From contig DASPXX010000293.1 of NCBI GenBank assembly GCA_035637095.1, positions 284-64,283 of the forward strand: 64,000 nucleotides of DNA, written 5' to 3'. The notes under the pieces were generated by a model, which was not told the DNA's origin, did no database searches, and saw nothing but the letters and a program-made list of their open reading frames with translations. Below, piece by piece: positions 4,920 through 61,416 of this stretch. Both the position numbers and the translations under genes were made by a program. The DNA comes from Thermoanaerobaculia bacterium (lineage in GTDB: Bacteria; Acidobacteriota; Thermoanaerobaculia; Multivoradales; UBA5704). How positions within the stretch are numbered: the stretch's first letter is position 1; each line of letters begins with the position of its first letter.

Positions 4920-5107
4920 ACGGTCCGAGATAGCGGCAAACCGGCCGAGATAGCCGCTAACGGGACGAGTTAGCCACTAACTCGACGAGTTAACGGCTAT
5001 CTCGGCCGAGATAACGGTTAACCGGGCCGGTTAGCGGTAAACCGGACGAGTTAACGGCTATTCGCGGCCGTTTAGCCGTTAGCGGGCCGGGATAGCGGTT
5101 GAAAACG
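4920..5107. repeat. Iteron-like array: 9 tandem degenerate units of about 20 bp
   Basis: ccgagatagcggcaaaccgg / ccgagatagccgctaacggg / acgagttagccactaactcg / acgagttaacggctatctcgg / ccgagataacggttaaccggg / ccggttagcggtaaaccgg / acgagttaacggctattcgcgg / ccgtttagccgttagcggg / ccgggatagcggttgaaaacgg. Consensus about cCGAGtTArCGGyTAaCCGG. Several units are internally palindromic, for example GAGTTAGccaCTAACTC and GGTTAACC. Confidence 0.7.
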
Positions 5108-11897: not shown

Positions 11898-12316
11898 GCC
11901 CTCTCGGGTGCCTCATCCGACCTCTCGGACGCGCCATCCGACGTCTCGGGTGGACCATCCGACCCCTCGGATGAGGCATCCGACCTTTCGGGTGCACCAC
12001 CCGAGGCCTCGAACGCGCCATCCGACCCCTCGAATGCGCCATCCGACGCCTCGTCTGTGACATTCGAGGCCTCGGATGCGACATCCGACCTCTCGAGCGT
12101 GACATCCGACCTCTCGGATGTGACATCCGAACCCTCGGATGCGCCATCCGACCTCTCGGATACGCCATCCGACGCCTCGGATGAGCCATCCGACGCCTCG
12201 AACGCGCCATCCGACGCCTCGAACGCGCCATCCGACCTCTCGGACGGGCCATCCGACGCCTCGGATGAGGCAACCGACGTCTCGGATGAGCCGTTCGACC
12301 TCTCGCCTGGCGGGAC
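11898..12316. repeat. Minisatellite: about 20 tandem copies of a degenerate 21-bp (7-codon) unit
   Basis: Unit is about gacgcctcggatgcgccatcc (gacctctcggacgcgccatcc, gacgtctcgggtggaccatcc, gacccctcggatgaggcatcc ...). It starts 22 nt after the nucleotidyltransferase stop. One frame is open from 11877 to 12386 encoding (A/G)PSD(L/A/P)S(D/N) heptads. Other frames give HPTPRTR or RSDGAFEAS repeats. Confidence 0.8.
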
Positions 12317-18067: not shown

Positions 18068-20113
18068 TTGATGAACGCGAATCCAGAGTCCAAGCCACCC
18101 GCCGGACCGCCTCGCCATCAGCCTTTCGTCCCCGAAACCGCCGAGATGCCGGAGTTCACGCTCCGCGCCGTGCTCCTGGGCCTCGTGATGACGCTCGTGC
18201 TCGGAGCCGCCAACGCCTACCTGGGCCTGCGCGCCGGGGTGACGATCGCGGCGACCTATCCAGCCGCCGTGATCGGCATGGCGGTGCTCCGCCTGTGGAA
18301 GGGATCGATCCTCGAAGAGAACATCGCGCGAACGGCGGGCTCGATCGGCGAGTCGGTCGCGGCCGGCGCGATCTTCACGCTCCCGGCCTTCGTCATCGCC
18401 GGAGCGTGGCCGTCCTTCTCCGCGAAGGACGCGTATTGGAAGTCCACGGCCCTGATGCTGGTCGGGGGCGTGCTCGGCGTTCTCTTCGTCTCGCTCGTGC
18501 GGCGGGTCATGGTCGAGGACCGCGAGCTTCCGTTCCCCGAGTCGGTGGCCGCGGCCGAGATCCACAAGGCGGGCCAGAGGGGCGCCCAGGCGGCCAAGTA
18601 CCTCTTCTACAGCATGGGCGTCGGCGGGCTGGTCTACATCCTCGGCGTCATCAAGCTGTTCGCGCCGGACCGGGACTTCCTCCTCAAGATCGGTTCCCTC
18701 GGGCTGAGCAAGATCCGCCTGGGCTCCGCCGCCGAGGCTCCCGCGCTGAGCACGGGCGGCGTCACCACTTTCGCGGCTCCCACGGTGAGCCCCGCCTACC
18801 TGGGCGTCGGCTACATCATCGGTCCCGAGCTCGCGGCGCTCAACTTCTCGGGCGGCGTGCTCGCGTGGGGCTTCATGGTCCCGCTCCTCATGTTCCTGCT
18901 CGGCCCCCAGATCCAGACCTTCCTGCCGGCGGGCGCTGCGCCCGACGACTGGGCCGGCCAGGTCGGCCTCGTCTGGCGGTTCGTCGTGCGGCCGATCGCG
19001 GTCGGCGGCATGCTCGTGGGCGCGGCGTTCACGCTCTACAAGATGCGGAAGAACCTGTTCGGCGGGCTCGCCCGGGCCTTCTCCGAGCTCAAGGGCAAGG
19101 CCGGCCACGAGCAGGCGGCCGGGCGGACCGAGCGCTACATGAGCTCCCGCACGGTCTTCGCGCTGATCGCCCTCGTGTTCGTCCTGATGGTCTTCCTCTA
19201 TGTCTACATGTCGGGCCTGGTGATGGGCGCCATTGTGGCCGGCATCGTGATGCTCCTGGCGGGCTTCTTCTTCGCCACCGTGTCCGGCTATCTCGTCGGA
19301 TTGATCGGCTCCTCGAACAACCCGATCTCCGGCCTGACGCTCTCGACCCTGATCATCGCCGCCCTGCTGATGGTCTCGCTCGGCGTGTCCGGCAAGAGCG
19401 GCATCGTGGCGGTCCTCGGAGTGGCGGCCGTGGTCTGCGTCTCGTCGGCGGTGGCCGGTGAGCTGCTCCAGGACTTCAAGGTCGGCTACATCCTCGGCGG
19501 CACGCCACGCACCATCCAGATCGTCGAGCTGATCGCCGTGGTCTGCGCGAGCCTCGTCATGTACTTCCCGCTGATGATCCTCCATCAGGGCATGGGAGGC
19601 TTCGGCTCCCCGCAGCTCCCCGCACCGCAGGCCGGGCTGATGGCGGCGCTCGCGCAGGGGATCGTGGGCGGGAACATGCCCTGGACCCTGGTGGTGGTCG
19701 GCATCTTCATGGGGATCGCGATGATCCTGTTCCGCGTGCGCAGCCCCATGCTCGTCGCGGTCGGCATGTACCTGCCGCTCTCCACGACCTTCGCGATCTT
19801 CGTCGGTGGCATGATCCGTGGGCTGACCGACAGGATGAGCGAGCGCAAGGGCTTCAACGAGGCACAGAAGGCGCGCGTGGAGAACGTCGGCGTGCTGGTC
19901 GCCTCCGGCCTGATCGCCGGCGAGGCGCTCATGGGGCTGGCGAATGCGACCTACATCTTCTTCGCGAAAAAGGAGCTGCCCGGGATCCTCCAGAACCCGT
20001 CGTATCTCGTTGGGCTCGTCGTGATGGCGATCCTCGCCTTCATCCTGGTCCGCGTGCCCCTGGCAAACGCGGGGAGCCCGGACGAGCCGGCGCCGCCGGT
20101 CGCGATGATGTGA
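18068..20113 (+). CDS. OPT-family oligopeptide transporter (681 aa)
   Basis: Polytopic membrane protein. ..FTLRAVLLGLVMTLVLGAANAYLGLRAGVTIAATYPAAVIGMAVLR.. ..GSIGESVAAGAIFTLPAF.. and the length (about 650-700 aa) and repeated structure are typical of bacterial OPT transporters. Confidence 0.85.
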   Translation: MMNANPESKPPAGPPRHQPFVPETAEMPEFTLRAVLLGLVMTLVLGAANAYLGLRAGVTIAATYPAAVIGMAVLRLWKGSILEENIARTAGSIGESVAAGAIFTLPAFVIAGAWPSFSAKDAYWKSTALMLVGGVLGVLFVSLVRRVMVEDRELPFPESVAAAEIHKAGQRGAQAAKYLFYSMGVGGLVYILGVIKLFAPDRDFLLKIGSLGLSKIRLGSAAEAPALSTGGVTTFAAPTVSPAYLGVGYIIGPELAALNFSGGVLAWGFMVPLLMFLLGPQIQTFLPAGAAPDDWAGQVGLVWRFVVRPIAVGGMLVGAAFTLYKMRKNLFGGLARAFSELKGKAGHEQAAGRTERYMSSRTVFALIALVFVLMVFLYVYMSGLVMGAIVAGIVMLLAGFFFATVSGYLVGLIGSSNNPISGLTLSTLIIAALLMVSLGVSGKSGIVAVLGVAAVVCVSSAVAGELLQDFKVGYILGGTPRTIQIVELIAVVCASLVMYFPLMILHQGMGGFGSPQLPAPQAGLMAALAQGIVGGNMPWTLVVVGIFMGIAMILFRVRSPMLVAVGMYLPLSTTFAIFVGGMIRGLTDRMSERKGFNEAQKARVENVGVLVASGLIAGEALMGLANATYIFFAKKELPGILQNPSYLVGLVVMAILAFILVRVPLANAGSPDEPAPPVAMM

Positions 20114-20119
20114 GCTTTG

Positions 20120-20251
20120 GCCCTCACCCCCGGCCCCTCTCCCACAAGTGGGAGAGGGGAGAGGGTTAGAAGGCTCCGCGGGCTCCGGAAAAGCTTTTGA
20201 TCAAACCTACACCCCTCTCCCGCTTGCGGGAGAGGGGCCGGGGGTGAGGGC
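20120..20251. mobile_element. MITE-like palindromic element, copy a (132 bp) between convergent OPT and ligase genes, overlapping the ligase 3' end
   Basis: gccctcacccccggcccctctccc-acaagt-gggagagggg ... cccctctccc-gcttgc-gggagaggggccgggggtgagggc. 24-bp terminal inverted repeats, each containing a cccctctccc/gggagagggg hairpin, with a 52-bp spacer. Confidence 0.7.
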
Positions 20252-21350
20252 TCTCGACCTGCTCGAAGGTGCAGGCCTCGGGGTCCTTGTCCGGCCGCCA
20301 GCGCAGGAGCTTGGTGCCGTGGCGGAAACGGCCGCCGGAGAAGTGGTCGTAGCGCACCTCGCAGACCAGGACGGGATCGAGCGGGATCCATTCGGTCGAG
20401 CGACCCTGCGACCAGCGGCTCGGCCCTCCCGGCGCCTTGCCGGAGAAGCCGCTCCCGCCCTGGTACGGCTTCACGATCTTCTCGACCTCCTTCCGCTCCG
20501 CCGCGGTGAAGCTCGACGAGAAGCCCACGTGGTCGAGCTCCCCCTCGTCGTTGTAGAGGCCGAGGAGGAGCGAGCCGAGCCCCTCGCCCTTCTGCGCCTT
20601 GCGGATGCCGCCGACCACGCAGTCGGCGGTCCGCATCCGCTTCACCTTCACCATGCCGCTGCGGTCTCCCGAGAGGTAGCCGGCCTCCAGCCGCTTGGCG
20701 ACGACGCCGTCGAGCCCGGAGGCGCCGAGCTGGCTGATCCATCTCTCGGCGAGCTTCCTGTCCTCGGTCGCCGGGGAGAGGACGGCGGAGGCCTCCCCCT
20801 CCGGCCGCGCGGGGATCTTCGCGAAGAGCGCTTCGAGGCGCCGCCGCCGCTCGGACAGGGGCTCGTCCACCAGGGATTTGCCTCTGGAGTCGACCAGCAG
20901 GTCGAAGGCGTAGAGGCTCGCCGGGGTCTCGCGGGCCAGCTTGCGGACGCGGCTCTCGGCGGGGTGGATGCGCTGCAGCAGGTCGTCGAACGCGAGCACG
21001 CCGTCGCGCGCGATCACGATCTCGCCGTCGAGGACGAAGGTGGAGACCGGAAGCGCGGCGAGCGCCTCCACCAGCTCGGGAAAGTAGCGCCCCAGCGGCT
21101 GGCAGGCCTTCGACTGGAGAAGCACCTGCTTCCCCTTGCGAAACGCCAGGCACCGGAAGCCGTCCCACTTTGGCTCATAGAGCCAGCCGCCGCCCCCGGG
21201 GATGCGCTCGGCCGACCGCGCCTCCATCGGGGGGAACGGCGGCCGGACCGGCAGGTCGATGGCGGGAAAGTCGCCTTCGAGAGCCTCGGCAGGCACCGCC
21301 CCGGCCGTCACTCGGGTCTCGGAGGGCTTTTTCTTGCTGCGAGTCGCCAT
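20166..21350 (-). CDS. ATP-dependent DNA ligase (LigD ligase-domain-like, 394 aa)
   Basis: Start MATRSKKKPSETRV.. (internal ATG of ORF 20166..22016). ..GGWLYEPKWDGFRCLAFRKG.. is the KxDG adenylation motif I. ..LDGEIVI.., ..VDGVVAKRL.., ..KVKR.. are downstream ligase motifs. The last about 30 codons (..[28 protein letters not shown]) are encoded by MITE copy a. Confidence 0.8.
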   Translation of the reverse strand: MATRSKKKPSETRVTAGAVPAEALEGDFPAIDLPVRPPFPPMEARSAERIPGGGGWLYEPKWDGFRCLAFRKGKQVLLQSKACQPLGRYFPELVEALAALPVSTFVLDGEIVIARDGVLAFDDLLQRIHPAESRVRKLARETPASLYAFDLLVDSRGKSLVDEPLSERRRRLEALFAKIPARPEGEASAVLSPATEDRKLAERWISQLGASGLDGVVAKRLEAGYLSGDRSGMVKVKRMRTADCVVGGIRKAQKGEGLGSLLLGLYNDEGELDHVGFSSSFTAAERKEVEKIVKPYQGGSGFSGKAPGGPSRWSQGRSTEWIPLDPVLVCEVRYDHFSGGRFRHGTKLLRWRPDKDPEACTFEQVESPHPRPLSRKRERGVGLIKSFSGARGAF

Positions 21351-26943: not shown

Positions 26944-27000
26944 CCCTCACCCCCCTGGTCCCCTCTCCCACCCGCACTCCCACCCTCCGGGAGAGGGGGA
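26944..27000. repeat. Degenerate single-arm copy (c) of the MITE-like element
   Basis: ccctcacccccctggtcccctctccc-acccgcactcccaccctcc-gggagaggggg resembles the outer arm plus hairpin of copies a and b. Confidence 0.5.
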
Positions 27001-27009
27001 ACCCCCAAC

Positions 27010-27210
27010 GCTCGCTTTTTCAAGCTCCCCTTCGTCCATTTCGTCCCCCTCGACAACCGCATCGCGCTCCGCTCCAACCACCTTCCGGGGGAGATCCACG
27101 AGGACCCCGCGGACCGGATCATCATCGCCACGGCGCTGACTCTGGGAGCTCCCCTGGTTTCGAAGGACACGAGGATTCGTGACTATCCTCACGTCGAGAC
27201 CATCTGGTGA
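27010..27210 (+). pseudogene. 3' fragment of a vapC (PIN-domain) toxin gene lacking its 5' half
   Basis: ORF 26860..27210 ends ..FKLPFVHFVPLDNRIALRSNHLPGEIHEDPADRIIIATALTLGAPLVSKDTRIRDYPHVETIW*. The ..DP.DR.IIATAL..g..LVT.D..I..Y.. tail is the C-terminal third of PIN toxins. The N-terminal region is replaced by MITE copy c and unrelated sequence. Confidence 0.45.
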
Positions 27211-37261: not shown

Positions 37262-37500
37262 CGGACGGGCCATCTGTTCCGAGATATGGGCCACCTGCTC
37301 CGCGGAACGAGACCCCGTTCCGCGGTACGGGTCACCTGCTCCGAGGTACAGGCCATCTGTTCCGCGGAGCGAGCCGCCTGTTCCGTGGAGCGAGCTGTCC
37401 ATTCCGCGGAGCGAGCCTCCTGTTCCACCGGGCGAAGCCCCGCTCCGAGGAACGAGCCTCCCGTTCCGCGGAACGGATCACCCGCTCCATGGAACGGGAA
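37262..37500. repeat. Field of about 11 degenerate tandem repeats with a palindromic TCCGCGGA core
   Basis: ctgttccgagatatgg / ctgctccgcggaacgag / cgttccgcggtacggg / ctgctccgaggtacagg / ctgttccgcggagcgag / ctgttccgtggagcgag / cattccgcggagcgag / ctgttccaccgggcgaag / cgctccgaggaacgag / ccgttccgcggaacgg / cgctccatggaacggg. Period about 21-24 bp. Lies immediately downstream of jetD. A perfect 16-bp palindrome CGACCGGTACCGGTCG precedes it at about 37226. Confidence 0.65.
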
Positions 37501-38255: not shown

Positions 38256-38345
38256 TGGCGGAGGGGGTGGGATTCGAACCCACGGGCCGCGTGAACGACC
38301 GGCGGTTTTCAAGACCGCTGCTTTAGACCGCTCAGCCACCCCTCC
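38256..38345 (-). tRNA. tRNA-Ser (anticodon UGA), 90 nt with a long variable arm and encoded CCA
   Basis: Reverse complement GGAGGGGTGGCTGAGCGGTCTAAAGCAGCGGTCTTGAAAACCGCCGGTCGTTCACGCGGCCCGTGGGTTCGAATCCCACCCCCTCCGCCA. 7-bp acceptor stem GGAGGGG/CCCCTCC, anticodon loop CTTGAAA (TGA), T-arm GTGGG-TTCGAAT-CCCAC, long variable arm, discriminator G plus CCA. Confidence 0.85.
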
Positions 38346-38358
38346 GTGATCTGGAAGC

Positions 38359-39642
38359 TTACTTGGTGGGCTCGATCCTCTCCAAACCGCCCATCCAGGG
38401 ACGCAGCGCCTCGGGGATCAACACCGTGCCGTCCTCCTGCTGGTAGTTCTCCAGGATCGCCACCAGCGTCCGCCCCACGGCGAGGCCCGAGCCGTTCAGG
38501 GTGTGCAGGAGCTTCGCCTTGCCGCCGCCGGCCGGCCGGTAGCGCAGGTTCGCCCGCCTCGCCTGGAAATCCTCGCAGTTGCTGCAGGAGGAGATCTCCC
38601 GGTAGGCGTCCTGGGCGGGCAGCCAGACCTCGATGTCGTGCGTCTTCGCCGCGCCGAAGCCCATGTCCCCGGTCGAGAGCGTGACCACCCGGTAGGGGAG
38701 CCCCAGGCGCTCGAGGACCTTCTCGGCGTTGCCGGTCAGCTCGGCGAGGGCGTCGTAGCTCGTCTCCTGGGTGGTCAGGTGCACCAGCTCGACCTTGTTG
38801 AACTGGTGCTGGCGGATCAGGCCGCGGACGTCCTTGCCGTAGGAGCCGGCCTCACTGCGGAAGCAGGGGGTCCAGGCGGTGAAGCGGACGGGCAGACGCT
38901 CTTCGTCCAGGGTCTCGTCGCGGTAGAGATTGGTCAGCGGCACTTCGGCCGTGGGAACCAGGAAGTAGTTGGTCCCTTCCAGATGGAAGAGGTCCTGCTC
39001 GAACTTGGGGAGCTGGCCGGTGCCGGTCAGGCTCTCGCGGCTGACGATGAACGGCGGCAGGACCTCGGTGTAGCCGTGCTCGCGGGTGTGGAGGTCGAGC
39101 ATGAAGTTGATCAGCGCCCTTTCGAGGCGGGCGCCGGCGCCGAAGTAGGCGGTGAAGCGGGCGCCGGCCACCTTGGCGCCGCGCTCGAAATCGAGGATGC
39201 CGAGCGCCGGGCCGAGGTCCCAGTGGGCCTTGGGCGTGAAATCGAAACGGCGCGGCTCGCCGACCACCCGCTCGACGCGGTTGGCCGACTCGTCGGGGCC
39301 GACCGGCACGCTCTCGTGCGGCAGGTTGGGGAGCGAGAGCTCGACGGCGGCCATCTCGGGATCGAGAGCGGCGAGACGGGCCTCCAACTCCTCGATGCGC
39401 TCCTTCATCCGGCCGACGGCGGCGATCTCGGCCGAGGCGTCGCCTCCCTGCTGCTTGACCTTGCCGATGGCGCGGCTCGCCTCGTTGCGCTGCCGCTTCA
39501 AGTCTTCGACCTCGACGAGGTCGGTCCGCCGCTCGGCGTCGAGGCGCAGCCACTCGTCGAGCAGGGCCGGGTCGGTGTTCCGGGTCGCCAGGGCCTGGCG
39601 GACCTTGTCGGGGTTGTCGCGCAAAAGGTCTCGGGAAAGCAT
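38359..39642 (-). CDS. serS: Seryl-tRNA synthetase
   Basis: From the internal ATG: [39 protein letters not shown].. (N-terminal coiled-coil arm). Class II catalytic core with ..[34 protein letters not shown].. and ..[20 protein letters not shown]... The extra 107 N-terminal codons of the listed ORF are Ala/Ser-rich and unlikely to be translated. Confidence 0.9.
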
Positions 39643-39694: not shown

Positions 39695-42600
39695 ATGATC
39701 CGCACCACGCCGGCTGAAGCTCGCCGCCGATTTCCGATCGTGAACGCAGACCGCATCTCCTTTCGTGACGCGCTGGCGCGCGCCGCGGTCCCGCTCGCCG
39801 CCCTGGCGGCGATGGCCGCGCTCGCCTCGCGCGAGGTCGATCCCGTGGGGGCCGCCGAGACGGCGTATCTGGCGGTGCTGGCCACGGCGGGGCTGCTGGC
39901 CGTCGCCTTTCTGGCGCCGGCGCCGGCCTGGGAAGCGGGCGTGGGCGCCACCCTGGCTACCACGATCGTCTGGGCGCTCCCGCCCGGGCCGGGGCGGGGG
40001 GCGGCGGTTGTGTTGCTTCTTGTGGCGGCTCTGGCGGTTGCGGCGGGGCGGAGGTTCCCTCACCCCCGGCCCCTCTCCCGCGAGCGGGAGAGGGGTGAAC
40101 AGCAAGAGAATGTCTTTGCTTTGCTCCCCTCTCCCGCTCGCGGGAGAGGGGCCGGGGGTGAGGGCTTCTTGCTCCCGCTCTCCTTCGGCCTCCAGGTTCT
40201 CCTGCGCGGGAGCGAGCTGCTGTTTCAACCCCAGGTGAATCTGCGGACTCTGGTGGCACTTCTGGGACTCCCGGTGGCCGGGGCGGCCGCCACGGCGGTG
40301 CTGGCCCGGCGCTATGGGCCGGCCGCCCTGGCCGCGGCGGGTGCGGCCCTGTTGCTTGCACCAGGGTGGAACGTGGCGGCCACGGCCGGGCTGGTGGCTC
40401 TGGCTGCCGGCGACCTGATCGCCCGGTGGAGAGGGGCCATCCTGGCCACCGCCGTCCTGGCCGGCGCCTTCCTGCTGAGGCCAGGAGTGCCGGATCTCTC
40501 GATGGCGGCGGGTCTGCTGGCACTGGCGGTGCTGTACCTGGGGCGGAAGATCCTCGCCGTCACGGCGGTCGCCATCGCCGCCCTCCTCTTGACGACCGCC
40601 CTGCTCGCCTCCTATCCCTGGCTGCGCAGCGAGCCCCTCCAGGAAGCCCTCGGCCTCTTCGTTCACATCCCCACTCCCGGCACCTCCCTCCTCCCCCCTG
40701 CTACGGCGGTCGTCGTCGACGCGGCGCATCCATCCTGGAGAGTTGCGGTCACGGGGAAGAGCGTGGACACGGTGGTCCTCGACTCCAGCCTCTCGAACGG
40801 CGCCGGCTTGCCGAACGGCACGCCGGTCGCGACGGTGCACCTCCGCGGCGGGGACGGCAGGATCTACGGATGGGTCGTGCGGGCGGGGCAGGATACCGGC
40901 GAGTGGGCGGCGCGGCGGCCGGATGTGGCGGCGGCGAGCGTCCTCAAGTCGCCGCCGCCCTGGCTCTCCTGGGTGGCCGGCGGCTTCTTCGGCCAGCGGT
41001 ACCGGTCCCTCTGGAACGTCGACTCCCCCGGGTCCTTCACCGAGCTGTCCATCGAGCGCAATCCGGCCCTGCCGCCGCAGGTCAGCCTGGCGCTCCACGC
41101 GGTGGAGATCCGGAAGCCGTTTGCCGCCCGGCTGCTGCCCGCGGGCGATCCTTTCCGCGGCACGCTGGCGGTCCTGCCGCTGGTCCTCGCAGCGCTCTGG
41201 GCCATCGCGCGGTGGAGCGTACGCCGCGGCGCCGAGCCGCTCTCCCGCGCCGGCTCGGCCGGAGAGCTCGCGGCGCTGGCCGTCCTCGTCCTCTGCATCC
41301 TGGCCCGGCCGGGCCTCGGGCTCGCGTGGTCCGCGGAGGTCCTGGCCGCAGGGCTCGTCCTGGTGCTCGGGTTTCGCGCCGTCCGGCAGGTCCGGGCTCT
41401 GCGGCCTCTCCTCGGCGACCGGCTGCCGCGCCGCCCGTCGCTCGTCTTCTTCCTCCTGCCGCTCACCGTCTACGTGGCGATCCTCCCCTGGTCGACGGTC
41501 CACCGCCAACCGGACGGCGACGAGCCGTTCTATCTGCTGATCACCCACAGCCTGGCCTACGACTTCGACGCCGAGCTGACCAACAACTATGCGCACGGGG
41601 ACTGGCGGCACTTCATGGAGCGGCCGATCGAGCCGCAGGCCGGGGACCCGGTCGGACCGCACGGCGAGCTCTATTCGCGCCACAACGAGCTGCTCCCCCT
41701 GGCGCTGGTCCCGGCCTACCGCGTGGGGGGACGGATCGGCGCCCTCGGCATGATGGCGGCCTTCACGGCCCTCCTCGCCTGGCTGATGCTGCGCCTCGGC
41801 CGCCACTACGTTCCGGACCGGCCGGGCGAGGTCCTCTCCGCCTGGGCGCTGGCGGTGCTCGCTCCGCCGCTTCTCCTCTACTCCTACCAGGTCTGGGTGG
41901 AGGTGCCGGCGGCTCTCCTGATGCTGTTCGCCCTCGACCGCATCCTCGATCTCGACGGCCAGCGGCAGTGGACGGTCCGCCAATGGCTGGGGATCGGCCT
42001 GTCGATCCTGCTCCTGCCGCTCCTCAAGATGCGGTTCGTGCTCATCTCCGGGCCGCTCCTTGCGCTCGCCTGGTGGTATTCGGGACGGCCGCGCCGGCCG
42101 GTGTTCTTGCTGACCGCGGCGCTCGCCCTGCTCGGCGTGGGCATGCTCGCGTACAACCAGGCGGTCTACGGGAACCCGCTCAAGATCCACACCTGGGAAG
42201 AGGTGGACCCGCACCGCCACGACCTGCTCTCGTATTGGAAGGGCGGGCTCGGGCTGCTCTGGGATTCGGCGTTCGGCCTGTTCGGCTGCGCACCCATCTG
42301 GCTGATCGTCCTCCCTGCCGTGCTCCTCCTCCTCGCCCGCCGCCACCGGCTCCTGATCCACCTGGCAGTGCTGACCCTTCCTTATCTCCTGGTCGTGGTG
42401 CCGCGGATCGAGTGGTACGGCGGCTGGTCTCCCCCGTTCCGCTATGCGCTGATCGGGCTGCCGTTCCTCAGCCTGGCGCTGGCGCCTCTCCTGGAGCGGC
42501 GGGACGGTCCCGGGGCGCGGGCGCTCCTCGCCGGTCTCGGCACCTTGACCCTGGCCCTGGCGCTGCTCTGGCTGGTCATGCCGGGCTGGACCTACAACTT

Positions 42601-43258
42601 CGCGGACGGCCGGACCTACCTGCTCGACGCTCTCGGGCAGCGGCTGGGTCTGGACGTCGCCCGCTTCTTCCCCAGCTCCATCCGTCCCCGGCCCGCCACC
42701 TGGCTCTGGCCGCCACTCACCATCCTCTTCACCACGGTTCTCTGGTGGTTCCCCTTCCGGAGAGGGGGCCAGGGGGTAAGGGTCGCCGGGCTCGCCGGAG
42801 TCGCCGCCGTCCTGCTCCTCGCCGCGGCGGTCCCCCCGGCCGCCGCACGCCTGCCCACCACGGTCGCCGAGATCGAGGACCCGCAGGTGGCGAAGAGCGG
42901 TGGGCATCTCTATCCCGACCGCTGGATCATCGAGCGGGCTCGCCATCGCGGCGGCTGGGTGCTGCGGGTCGGCGAGCGGGTGAAGGTGCCGGTGAAGGCC
43001 GGGGGACGGCGGGTCTGCCTGGTGCTCCGGGGAGAGCTCGTCCAGAACCAGCTGGTGCCGTTCCGGCTCGACATACAGGCAGGCGACCGACTGCTGGCCG
43101 TCTGGGCTCCGGGCCGCGACCGCGCCTGGGATGCAGTGACGCTCGGCCCCTTCGACTGGCCGGCGGGCAAGCCCCTGGTGCTCTCCGCCTTCGGGCCGCA
43201 CCCGCCGGGAGAGCCCAACGGCATCGTGCTCGACCGGGTGGATTTCGCATGGGAGTGA
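39695..43258 (+). CDS. Large polytopic membrane protein, probable GT-C-type glycosyltransferase/EPS assembly protein (about 1187 aa); contains in-frame MITE copy b
   Basis: Start placed after the divergent serS start ([24 protein letters not shown].. or GTG about 39740). Many hydrophobic helices. Region ..[35 protein letters not shown].. resembles the first loop of GT-C (ArnT/PMT/YfhO-like) glycosyltransferases. Followed by five glycosyltransferase genes with overlapping junctions. The antisense ORF 39677..43201 is an artefact. Confidence 0.6.
40057..40164. mobile_element. MITE-like palindromic element, copy b (108 bp = 36 codons), inserted in-frame inside the membrane protein gene
   Basis: ccctcacccccggcccctctccc-gcgagc-gggagagggg-tgaacagcaagagaatgtctttgctttgct-cccctctccc-gctcgc-gggagaggggccgggggtgaggg. 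Same architecture as copy a with a shorter spacer. Translated as ..[41 protein letters not shown].. without a stop. Confidence 0.7.
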
Positions 43259-47149: not shown

Positions 47150-48604
47150 ATGCTGAAAGAACGAGCCCGTACCCTTGCCGTCTCCATCTTCCTGCTCGAT
47201 CTGACTCTGGTGGCCGCGGCGTTTCTGGCCGCCTACGGAGTCCGCGATTTCCTGCTTCCCCGCGTCGCTTCGGGGACCTTCCCCAGCCGGCTCTATGCGC
47301 TGGGCGACTATCTGCCGCTCTTGCCGCTCGCGCTGGTGATCTGGGGGACGCTGCTCCTCCTCTCCGGCCGCTACCGGTCGCACCGCACGGTGCCGCTGCT
47401 CGACGAGGCCTGGGCGATCATCCGCGTCTGCTTCATCGGCGCCGCGGTCTTCACGCTCCTCCTCTACGCGGCGCGCATCGACGAGCAGCTCCTGGGCGAC
47501 GATCGCATCAGCCGGTTCTGGATCCTGCTGTTCGCCATCTTCTCGTGCGTCTTCCTGCTCTCCGAGAAGATCGGCCTGCGCGTCACCTCCCGCTGGGTGC
47601 GGATGCGCGGCTTCAACTACCGCACGGTGCTGATCGTGGGCACGGGCCCCACCGCCCTCGCGATCGCCGACTCGATCCAGAGCCACCGCTTCTGGGGCTA
47701 CCGCATCCTCGGCTTCATCGCCAACGGCCAGGGGATCTCGCCGGGTTTCCCGAGGAGCTGGCCGGTCCTCGGCGAGGTGGACGACATCCCGCGGATCGTC
47801 GAGAGCAACGTGGTGGACGACGTGATCTTCGCCGTCCACCGCCGCGAGCTCGACCGCCTGGAGGACCTCTTCTTGAGCCTCCAGGAGCAGGGGATCCGCA
47901 CCCGGCTCGCGCTCGACCTCTTCCCTCACACGCGGGCCCAGGTGCAGCTGGAGGAACTGGACGGCATGCCGCTCCTCTCCTTCGCCACGGCTCCCTCCAG
48001 CCACATCCAGCTCCTGGCCAAGCGCACCGTGGACGTCGCGGTGGCCTCGTTCCTGCTCCTCCTCGGCCTGCCGGTGGTGCTGATGGTCGCCGTGGCGGTC
48101 AAGCTGAGCTCGGGGGGGAGCGTCCTCTTCCGCCAGACCCGCTGCGGCCTGAACGGGCGCTCCTTCACCCTCTACAAGTTCCGCACGATGGTCGAGGACG
48201 CCGAGGAGCGCCGCCGCGAGCTGCTGCATCTCAACGAGATGAACGGGCCGGTGTTCAAGCTGAAGGCCGATCCGCGGGTGACCTCGCTGGGCCGGTTCCT
48301 GCGCCGCTTCAGCCTCGACGAGCTGCCGCAGCTCTGGAACGTGCTGCGCGGCGACATGAGCCTGGTGGGGCCGCGCCCGCCGATCCCGGAAGAGGTGGCC
48401 AAGTACGAGCGCTGGCAGCGGCGCCGCCTGGCGATGAAGCCCGGCCTGACCTGCCTCTGGCAGATCAGCGGCAGGAACGAGCTCGACTTCCACCGCTGGA
48501 TGGAGCTGGATCTGGAGTACATCGACTCCTGGACTCCGCTGCTCGATTTCAAGATCCTGCTGAAGACGATCCCCGCGGTGCTCTCCGGGCGCGGGGCGAG
48601 CTGA
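47150..48604 (+). CDS. Polyprenyl-phosphate hexose-1-phosphate transferase (WbaP/EpsB-type priming glycosyltransferase)
   Basis: Four N-terminal TM helices. C-terminal sugar-transferase domain ..LKRTVDVAVASFLLLLGLPVVLMVAVAVKLSSGGSVLFRQTRCGLNGRSFTLYKFRTM...LDELPQLWNVLRGDMSLVGPRP.. (bacterial sugar transferase signature). Confidence 0.9.
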   Translation: MLKERARTLAVSIFLLDLTLVAAAFLAAYGVRDFLLPRVASGTFPSRLYALGDYLPLLPLALVIWGTLLLLSGRYRSHRTVPLLDEAWAIIRVCFIGAAVFTLLLYAARIDEQLLGDDRISRFWILLFAIFSCVFLLSEKIGLRVTSRWVRMRGFNYRTVLIVGTGPTALAIADSIQSHRFWGYRILGFIANGQGISPGFPRSWPVLGEVDDIPRIVESNVVDDVIFAVHRRELDRLEDLFLSLQEQGIRTRLALDLFPHTRAQVQLEELDGMPLLSFATAPSSHIQLLAKRTVDVAVASFLLLLGLPVVLMVAVAVKLSSGGSVLFRQTRCGLNGRSFTLYKFRTMVEDAEERRRELLHLNEMNGPVFKLKADPRVTSLGRFLRRFSLDELPQLWNVLRGDMSLVGPRPPIPEEVAKYERWQRRRLAMKPGLTCLWQISGRNELDFHRWMELDLEYIDSWTPLLDFKILLKTIPAVLSGRGAS

Positions 48605-48633
48605 GGAGAGGGGAGAGGGTTAGCTTCTCCGGC
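48604..48633. repeat. Partial copy (d) of the MITE-like element between convergent wbaP and peptidase genes
   Basis: gaggagaggggagagggttagcttctccgg matches the inner part of copy a (gggagaggggagagggttagaaggctccg). Confidence 0.45.
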
Positions 48634-49366
48634 CGCCCAGCAGACCGGAGCGGAACAGGAAGTAGAGCAGGGTCGTCAGGGTCGAGATCACCGCCGCCAC
48701 GTAGGTCAAGGCCGCGGCGTTCAGCACCCGGTCGATGCCTTCGCGCTCCTGCGCCATCACGATCCCGTTCTCCAGGACGAGGCGCTTGGCGCGCGCCGAG
48801 GCGTCGAGCTCCACCGGCAGCGTGACGATCTGGAACATCAGCACCAGCGAGAAGAGGGCCGCTCCGAAGAGCACGATCTGGGGCCCCATCGCGCTCCGCA
48901 TGTAGACCAGGAACAGGCCGAGCATCATCACCAGGTAGCCCACCGACGAGCCGATGTTGGCGGTGGGGACGAGCAGCGAGCGGAGCCACAGCGGTTTGTA
49001 GCCTTCCGCATGCTGGATCGCATGCCCCGCCTCGTGGCAGGCCACGCCCACCGCGGCCACCGAATTGGACGCATAGACCCCCTCGGACAGGGCGAGAGTC
49101 TTGTTCGCCGGGTTGTAGTGGTCGGTCAACTTCCCGTGCGTGGGGACGACCTGCACGTCGTAGATCCCCGCCCGGTCCAGCATGGCCTTGGCGGCCTGGG
49201 CGCCGGTCAGACCGCGCATGGTGCGCACCTGCGAATATTTGTTGAACGCCGACCGGGTCCGGAAGCTCGCCCAGAGGGAGAGCAGAAAGGCCGGCAGGAT
49301 GAACACGAAATATATCGGATCGAAGTGATAGAGCACGATCGAGCCTCCTTCGCTCTCTCGAAACAA
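48620..49366 (-). CDS. Membrane zinc metallopeptidase (YugP-like, HExxH)
   Basis: ..LALSEGVYASNSVAAVGVACHEAGHAIQHAEGYKPLWLRS.. has an HEaGH zinc motif in a membrane-embedded YugP-like protein. Multiple TM segments. Confidence 0.75.
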   Translation of the reverse strand: MFRESEGGSIVLYHFDPIYFVFILPAFLLSLWASFRTRSAFNKYSQVRTMRGLTGAQAAKAMLDRAGIYDVQVVPTHGKLTDHYNPANKTLALSEGVYASNSVAAVGVACHEAGHAIQHAEGYKPLWLRSLLVPTANIGSSVGYLVMMLGLFLVYMRSAMGPQIVLFGAALFSLVLMFQIVTLPVELDASARAKRLVLENGIVMAQEREGIDRVLNAAALTYVAAVISTLTTLLYFLFRSGLLGGRRS

Positions 49367-61269: not shown

Positions 61270-61362
61270 GGGCCTCCCGATCGTTGCGGTCCGTAAATGT
61301 CCGGCGGAGCATGACATGGGAGAGGCGAGAGGCGCAACGAGGACCATCCGCTCGGCAGCTCC

Positions 61363-61416
61363 CCCCTCTCCCGGTGGAAGGGGGGGCGATGGGAGAGGGG
61401 GGCCGGGGGGGTGAGG
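61363..61416. repeat. Degenerate copy (e) of the MITE-like element upstream of the permease gene
   Basis: cccctctccc-ggtggaaggggggcgat-gggagagggg-ggccgggggggtgagg is the hairpin plus outer arm of the element family. Confidence 0.5.

Follow-up and report, generated by a model that had tools for sequence, protein, structure and literature searches.

Palindromic, G/C-rich repeats in this Thermoanaerobaculia (Acidobacteriota) MAG are, with near certainty, copies of the BoxC/PIT/TMECO G/C-rich intrastrand triplex motif (TM), a family that has already been described and is neither new nor a lineage-specific MITE. Two of them, copies a and b, have entered or replaced coding sequence in this lineage and are absent from the orthologues. 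Additionally, units of the same motif are associated, in a fixed layout, with genes of the DUF559 family. The full explanation that we favour, and hold to be rather better than an even bet, is that TM units are the boundary repeats of a DUF559 cassette and that the copies described here are gene-less derivatives.

The window, by which we mean the whole 64-kb stretch of DNA analysed, has a G+C content of 69% and holds two doublets, two single units and one remnant, as follows.

20120-20251, 132 bp: copy a, a pair of TM units (20121-20159 and 20212-20250) that form an inverted doublet between the convergent OPT and ligase genes; the spacer between the units is 52 nt and partly palindromic
40057-40164, 108 bp: copy b, an inverted doublet of TM units 40057-40095 and 40126-40164 with a 30-nt spacer
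26945-26999, minus strand: copy c, a lone TM unit whose first loop is 19 nt long, located in the spacer that precedes a blaI-like gene
about 27010-27210, plus strand: C-terminal fragment of a PIN/VapC gene (translation ...LPGEIHEDPADRIIIATALTLGAPLVSKDTRIRDYPHVETIW), truncated on the side facing copy c
48605-48623, plus strand: copy d, a 19-nt remnant, GGAGAGGGGAGAGGGTTAG, made up of the R block, a TTA loop and G
61362-61416, plus strand: copy e, a lone TM unit whose first loop is 18 nt long, in the intergenic spacer between divergent genes

The arms of copy a (51 nt) are 88% complementary and those of copy b (49 nt) 94%, and the arms of the two copies are 93-98% identical to each other. Both are built from a unit of about 40 nt, CCCTCACCCCCGG followed by the hairpin CCCCTCTCCC-N6-GGGAGAGGGG. 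A sequence-only reading of the window had proposed a repeated palindromic family with complete copies a and b and degenerate, partial copies c, d and e. The family is borne out: the 23-mer CCCTCACCCCCGGCCCCTCTCCC occurs four times in the window, once per arm of copies a and b, the hairpin CCCTCTCCC-N-GGGAGAGGG also occurs four times, and neither appears in 100 shuffled sequences. A relaxed three-block pattern finds five units in the window and none in shuffles, and a fuzzy search finds six. Folded as single-stranded DNA under a model of hairpins only, copy a reaches -57.6 kcal/mol (z = -11.4) and copy b -65.6 kcal/mol (z = -16.1). The positions given for copies a and b were exact; as for the partial copies, c and e turn out to be single units and only d a remnant. 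Copy d, whose 19-mer recurs inside copy a, is a decay remnant of a TM unit. It plugs the gap between the convergent genes 47150-48604 (plus strand) and 48620-49366 (minus strand), and its TTA is the TAA stop of the latter. Copy c does abut a truncated vapC, as had been noticed, and it is the N-terminal part of the PIN/VapC protein that is missing.

The window contains other repeats. Positions 11903-12305 hold a tandem array of about 19 copies of the 21-nt unit CTCGGATGCGCCATCCGACCC, which has internal dyad symmetry and whose period would fit a 7-residue coding repeat. Two more arrays of 20-21-nt units lie at 37265-37472 and 4925-5099, and part of the latter (4942-5061) is a long palindrome with 59-nt arms, 73% complementary. 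Direct-repeat pairs of 41-44 nt at 95% identity (1-41 with 2795-2835, and 2269-2312 with 2896-2939) suggest duplicated segments. The serS gene (38359-39642, minus strand) has an 87-nt tRNA gene (38259-38345, minus strand) directly downstream, the sole Rfam match in the window at gathering thresholds; nothing matched at the elements.

The TM unit consists of three blocks: the pyrimidine block CCCCTCTCCC, its Watson-Crick partner GGGAGAGGGG and, joined by a CCG loop, the mirror-image third block GGGGTGAGGG. Aligned with type B of E. coli TMECO (CCCTCTCCCTGTGGGAGAGGGCCGGGGTGAGGGC), the window unit CCCCTCTCCCGCTCGCGGGAGAGGGGCCGGGGGTGAGGG has matching blocks and a matching CCG second loop, and it equals the E. 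coli sequence with every block longer by one base. The three-block triplex architecture is present, with CCCTCTCCC as Y block, GGGAGAGGG as R block and GGGTGAGGG as third block, the second loop being short. The literal published pattern, CCCTCNCCC-N3-6-GGGNGAGGG-N3-GGGNGAGGG, has no match in the window, because the one extra C/G per block (10 nt rather than 9 nt) shifts the register of the 3-nt loop. Compared with GGGGTGAGGG reversed (GGGAGTGGGG), GGGAGAGGGG shows a single A/T difference, at one triad, and every mirror position can form a G.G-C, A.A-T or T.A-T triad.

The BoxC repeat was later found again under the names PIT element and, finally, TMECO (Bachellier, 1990s; Hoyne, 2000; Holder et al., 2015, PMC4666352); the 2015 study defined it as an intrastrand triplex of the class II purine-motif type and described it from E. 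coli and hundreds of genomes. In E. coli K-12 there are 23 TMECO copies and five inverted pairs, with loop types TTA and CCG, and they were described as 'always intergenic', with no mobile-element link found (PMC4666352). CD and NMR showed the triplex in vitro, on the E. coli sequence alone, but it was not shown in vivo, and local instability was higher around the copies, whose sites are prone to deletion (PMC4666352). The same motif has been interpreted as a G-quadruplex/hairpin switch (Kaplan et al., 2016, PMC5100583). The window copies resemble this family in being multi-copy, in occurring singly and as inverted pairs, and in having local deletions alongside. They differ in block length (10 versus 9 nt), in host phylum (Acidobacteriota), in having the third blocks outermost in the doublets whereas they are innermost in E. 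coli pairs, and in that copies a and b lie in coding sequence, intergenic placement being a descriptive trait of the E. coli copies and not a definition. A link to a DUF559 gene is absent from both Holder 2015 and Kaplan 2016.

A scan for the unit pattern in one genome per species matched at least 120 loci. Among the matches listed are Proteobacteria, Chloroflexota, Planctomycetota, Cyanobacteria, Verrucomicrobiota, Myxococcota, Acidobacteriota and others, usually with single copies, and a copy from Salinisphaera is identical to the window unit over 37 of 37 nt. Single units are common in other loci, as are pairs with the third blocks either inside or outside. In L001-L120 the hairpin is very often trailed by AG, and in several phyla by AGCAAGAG, as at window positions 40096-40110 beside copy b; a further flank, AGCAGGCCTGAGCAAGC, carries the ORF stop in one DUF559 subfamily. 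Thus, on the evidence of these shared flanks, the conserved unit reaches past its three blocks.

Covariation suggests that the three-stranded fold may be under selection. In units beside DUF559 genes the mirror positions R4 and RH6, the fourth of the purine block and the sixth of the third block, are AA in 80 cases, GG in 21, AG in one and GA in five (Fisher p = 1.4e-16, a value inflated by the relatedness of the sequences), with G/G in 12 loci. Such a change from A.A-T to G.G-C is what a reverse-Hoogsteen triplex would predict, unlike homogenization of direct repeats or an alternative Watson-Crick pairing. Because related sequences inflate the statistic, we take this three-way block covariation as supportive of the fold, not conclusive.

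Copy b lies in the following gene.

39740-43258, plus strand: membrane protein of 1172 aa with no Pfam family, host gene of copy b

The deposited annotation has one 1172-aa protein running through the element, and GC3 supports the same reading frame on either side, in agreement with the claim that copy b is read in frame. It forms a 36-codon in-frame insertion, translated into 36 residues, in the loop after the fourth hydrophobic segment. That copy b is a true insertion, which the sequence-only reading had left to an alignment with orthologues, is upheld by 13 of them (60-64% identical to the window protein, alignment A1), which are conserved on either side and lack the element, and whose loci are syntenic, with serS upstream and glycosyltransferases downstream. 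Their loop has 14 residues versus 40 in the window protein. As just four non-element loop residues are left, the insertion of copy b cost about ten ancestral codons.

Other members of this membrane-protein family carry insertions of their own. In L121 the same loop holds one TM unit, two codons further on and in a different frame, and P0046 has a clean 44-residue doublet, in another loop, that is absent from nine homologues. A further candidate, P0015/L122, was considered as a remnant carrier (SGVRSEG) and rejected, its DNA not being convincingly TM-like. In L330, the closest relative of the 39740-43258 gene, an unrelated in-frame palindrome (L330 1422-1530) occupies the same codon as copy b. 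It consists of four copies of AAAGGACNN followed by four of GTCCTTTNN and is exactly as long as copy b, at 37 codons by this comparison; the gene is split into ORFs of 499 aa and 747 aa, versus the single 1172-aa ORF in the window, where this 9-nt-repeat palindrome was searched for and is absent. The loop is a hotspot for palindromes (copy b, L121 and L330).

Copy a lies at the end of a ligase gene, in the following setting.

18068-20113, plus strand: OPT-family transporter gene, convergent with the ligase gene, its stop 6 nt from copy a
20166-21317, minus strand: ATP-dependent DNA ligase gene, host gene of copy a
20166-20252, minus strand: element-encoded C-terminal tail of the ligase, 28 codons and a TAA stop lying in the spacer

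The Pfam domain DNA_ligase_A_C ends at residue 344 of 383. Among the 120 ligase homologues retrieved, close orthologues end ...ACTFEQVEPRRSAAALKGLGVEV*, and the window ligase ends ...ACTFEQVE followed by 28 element-encoded residues. The proposal that copy a supplies the ligase with its last codons and stop is thus confirmed by the orthologues, at 28 codons plus TAA, which replaced an ancestral 15-residue tail, PRRSAAALKGLGVEV. The convergent OPT gene is kept beside the ligase, and the orthologous neighbours carry PF03169. At the same junction a 92%-identical ligase relative has just a 14-nt remnant of the arm, CCCTCGCCCCCTGG, and its ligase gene overlaps the OPT gene by 11 nt; more distant relatives have ordinary intergenic hairpins there.

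We place the reality of both in-frame insertions beyond reasonable doubt. Because the orthologues lack them, the element-encoded peptides of copies a and b are not conserved protein sequence, and both copies displaced ancestral sequence and were not simple additions. Taken with the contexts of copies c and d, therefore, three or four of the five copies coincide with the loss of neighbouring sequence. Both element lengths are indeed multiples of three, as had been pointed out, although this is relevant for copy b only. The open frames of a TM unit encode peptides rich in Pro, Gly, Ser, Arg and Glu, and only one of the six holds a stop (GGG-TGA-GGG). Copies can persist in loops, linkers and C-termini because the five open frames encode such linker-like peptides.

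Rickettsia palindromic elements (RPE) are palindromic repeats of about 100-150 bp that lie in frame in protein-coding genes and are translated, like the window copies, and the likeness drawn to them by the sequence-only reading is fair as a functional analogy. To our knowledge RPE are unrelated in sequence to the copies described here, are restricted to Rickettsia and come without an associated gene.

A host-serving role has to be weighed against a selfish one. The motif could be structural DNA or RNA (a triplex, a G-quadruplex/hairpin switch, a terminator or an mRNA stabilizer) that regulates its neighbours, with DUF559 merely a user. Folding into triplex and G4/hairpin forms in vitro (PMC4666352, PMC5100583) and the covariation described above, which suggests selection on the fold, are consistent with this, as is the position of copies a and d at convergent gene ends. 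The sequence-only reading had put copies other than a and b at such ends and suggested that they possibly act as bidirectional terminators. Placement holds for a and d, but c and e are in divergent or promoter-side spacers, and the terminator idea finds no support: there are no T-tracts, a promoter/terminator scan around copy a gave no site of either kind, and published tests of TMECO found neither promoter nor terminator activity, nor any positional rule (PMC4666352). Moreover, copies are found in coding loops as well as in protein termini, promoters and gene ends, orthologues manage without them, and ancestral sequence was lost at the insertions. We regard a host-serving motif as improbable, if the best placed of the alternatives.

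The association with DUF559 came from an all-against-all comparison of the ORFs of 120 unit-bearing loci (among the matches listed). One small protein recurs beside units, Pfam DUF559 (E 1e-34 to 1e-45), and its gene is always directly bracketed by them; no transposase-like neighbour recurs in the 120 loci, where the only other recurrent proteins belong to large generic families. We then took 80 metagenome loci picked solely for DUF559, namely those most similar to the query (50-71% identity). A TM unit lies within 150 nt of the gene in 71 of the 80 and on both sides in 45. Unit density is 6.4 units/kb near the gene versus 0.094 elsewhere in the same loci, a 68-fold enrichment (Poisson p about 5e-209), and zero in shuffled loci. 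Orientation is also fixed, the nearest upstream unit having its third block toward the gene in 47 of 55 loci and the nearest downstream unit mirroring the upstream orientation in 55 of 61. As these loci are the nearest relatives of the query, the association is shown for that subfamily.

Larger arrangements recur as well. At least ten loci have a complete doublet of the window type on each side of the DUF559 gene, and in L143 and L153 the two flanking doublets are direct repeats of each other, spacers included. In two of the 120 unit-bearing loci whole unit-gene-unit cassettes lie in frame, one in MetRS, between the core and the tRNA-binding domain, and one in PriA, just before the Walker A motif. 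A DNA methylase ORF (L160 1634-4153) has two separate inserts in frame, one of them a TM doublet with no gene (YPHPNPSPKGRGEES...PLPLGEGGRRPGEGY) and the other a full DUF559 cassette. In the protein database the unit-encoded peptide PPHPNPLPxGERE is the C-terminal end of 89 of 119 DUF559 proteins. The E. coli gene ycjD ends ...RSPSP* within a degenerate unit that is followed by TMECO no. 9, and between the two lies a duplicated ycjD 3' fragment, ETVLENIRQGLNRPSHRHERVRG (L129, E. coli K-12 NC_000913.3 1351040-1351406); in some E. coli strains, variants of YcjD extend into the duplicated fragment. Decay intermediates, with a DUF559 3' fragment beside a unit, are seen in L028 and upstream of TMECO no. 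9. Viral contigs also hold units, and 3 of 120 such loci have a DUF559 gene, flanked once more. In a separate matter of naming, the stand-alone DUF559 proteins P0289, P0293, P0329 and P0358 are called 'lysyl-tRNA synthetase class 2' by JGI, a name that may have been transferred from a LysRS in which a DUF559 cassette lies in frame. Among unit-bearing loci, about 3-4% have a DUF559 gene, a share typical of the ratio of autonomous to non-autonomous elements.

A profile of the unit-flanked DUF559 proteins matches PDB 3HRL (E 6e-37) and, weakly, the homing endonuclease I-Bth0305I (3R3P, E 0.003). Residues D50, E61, D63 and H67 are invariant in a DUF559 alignment of five sequences, and a survey of PD-(D/E)XK enzymes puts Vsr, DUF559 and the homing enzyme I-Bth0305I together. 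DUF559 thus belongs with an endonuclease family that has proven homing members, and it is inserted in conserved genes. Like homing endonucleases and inteins of the I-Bth0305I family, it is a small Vsr-fold gene set into MetRS, PriA and a DNA methylase with the frame intact. The DUF559 cassette differs in having structured repeats at both ends and many gene-less copies. Because it is without an intron or an intein splicing domain, the insert would stay in the host protein.

We propose that a small selfish cassette encoding a putative DUF559 endonuclease, with TM units at its boundaries, may have spread across bacteria. The putative enzyme would cut or nick a structure formed by the units, possibly their intrastrand triplex fold, and so lead to the copying of cassettes and gene-less units; both this mobilizing role and the route to gene-less copies are inferred. 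Most likely, the window copies are gene-less derivatives of such cassettes. Doublets a and b could have been mobilized in trans or left after loss of the gene, for example by recombination between flanking repeats, and copies that fell in ORFs would be tolerated through their open frames, with local deletions accompanying insertion. By analogy with solo LTRs and composite elements, a DUF559 gene between directly repeated doublets, as in some loci, could on recombination leave a doublet like a or b; no intermediate of such recombination was observed.

Several observations count against this derivation. A tblastn search of the 64-kb window and of the Thermoanaerobaculia loci retrieved as relatives finds no DUF559 gene. 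The common cassette layout is 'R gene L' and the window doublets are 'L..R', with third blocks outermost, although L..R pairs flank the DUF559 gene in at least ten loci and the in-frame cassette L079 has the L..R layout. Copies a and b have neither a sharp shared element end nor a target-site duplication, and no duplication is seen at 43 cassette ends. Published work, with no mobile-element link and no in vivo triplex, also counts against the cassette reading.

Spread without any enzyme, through replication slippage, template switching or repair at non-B DNA, so that palindromes arise or are exchanged at fragile sites, is an unlikely account that we rank directly behind a host-serving motif. 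The palindrome of each doublet runs into its own unique spacer, as inverse duplication would give, TM sites are deletion-prone, and across relatives one membrane-protein loop holds a TM doublet, a single TM unit or an unrelated 9-nt-repeat palindrome of identical length. The L330 palindrome at the site of copy b could point to a site-specific or structure-driven process independent of DUF559. Such processes leave unexplained, however, both the near-identical units in distant phyla and the fixed bracket around DUF559 genes.

The label 'MITE-like' given in the sequence-only reading implies deletion derivatives of an insertion sequence, with a DDE-type transposase recognizing terminal inverted repeats of 13-24 bp and producing target-site duplications. 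Terminal inverted repeats, small size, several copies and presence or absence at orthologous sites all fit, but other hallmarks of the class are absent. The flanks of copy a (GCTTTGG/CTCTCGA) and copy b (GGAGGTT/CTTCTTG) are without duplication, like the cassette ends. Copies a and b have spacers of 52 nt and 30 nt that are not related to each other; the conserved module is the 40-nt unit, a known BoxC/PIT/TMECO motif, and not the whole element; single TM units are common; the same unit sequence is found across phyla; and DUF559 alone, no transposase family, recurs beside units in the 120 loci listed. As for a longer autonomous element that encodes the mobilizing enzyme, the candidate DUF559 cassettes end in the same units, and the window yielded no such cassette. 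A classical MITE is thus highly improbable.

Least probable of all is a REP/REPIN system, in which doublets of hairpin repeats are moved by a RAYT (an IS200/IS605-like Y1 transposase) via single-stranded DNA. The two are built much alike: short-tailed hairpin units stand alone or pair up as inverted doublets of some 100 bp, copies lacking the gene far outnumber those that carry it, and the gene lies between inverted units. Selection also seems to act on a fold of the single strand. Against this, no tag of the GTAG/CGTC type is present, the one gene that recurs between units in the sets of 120, 80 and 120 loci encodes a PD-(D/E)XK-type DUF559 protein and not a Y1 HUH transposase, and the TM unit is near-identical across phyla whereas REP families are lineage-specific and REPINs species-specific.

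To what is known of this family we add the coding-sequence habit of TM repeats, in Acidobacteriota and elsewhere, and a strong link to DUF559. Literature searches on DUF559 with repeats and on the block sequences, whose coverage was incomplete, returned no paper linking the two, which does not prove novelty. In its widest form, the idea is that a selfish element shared across phyla, with a YcjD-like, Vsr-fold DUF559 as its sole gene, has BoxC/TM repeats as its ends and leaves them behind as gene-less debris; it would be able to sit unspliced in essential genes with Pro/Gly-rich linkers and would have the triplex fold as its enzyme's substrate. In our judgement this idea stands at even odds.

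Three descriptions of this repeat family exist, as a palindrome, as a triplex and as a G-quadruplex switch, and none of them gives it an origin or a function. BoxC/TM repeats have been known since the 1990s, and the selfish-element reading would explain them if true. DUF559, in turn, is a very large family of 'unknown function', with YcjD as its member in E. coli K-12. Because the link between repeat and gene is fixed, both questions become testable by simple biochemistry and genetics in E. coli. The in-frame copies in the membrane protein, the ligase, MetRS, PriA and the methylase show that the repeats reshape proteins too; annotation pipelines translate them without comment.
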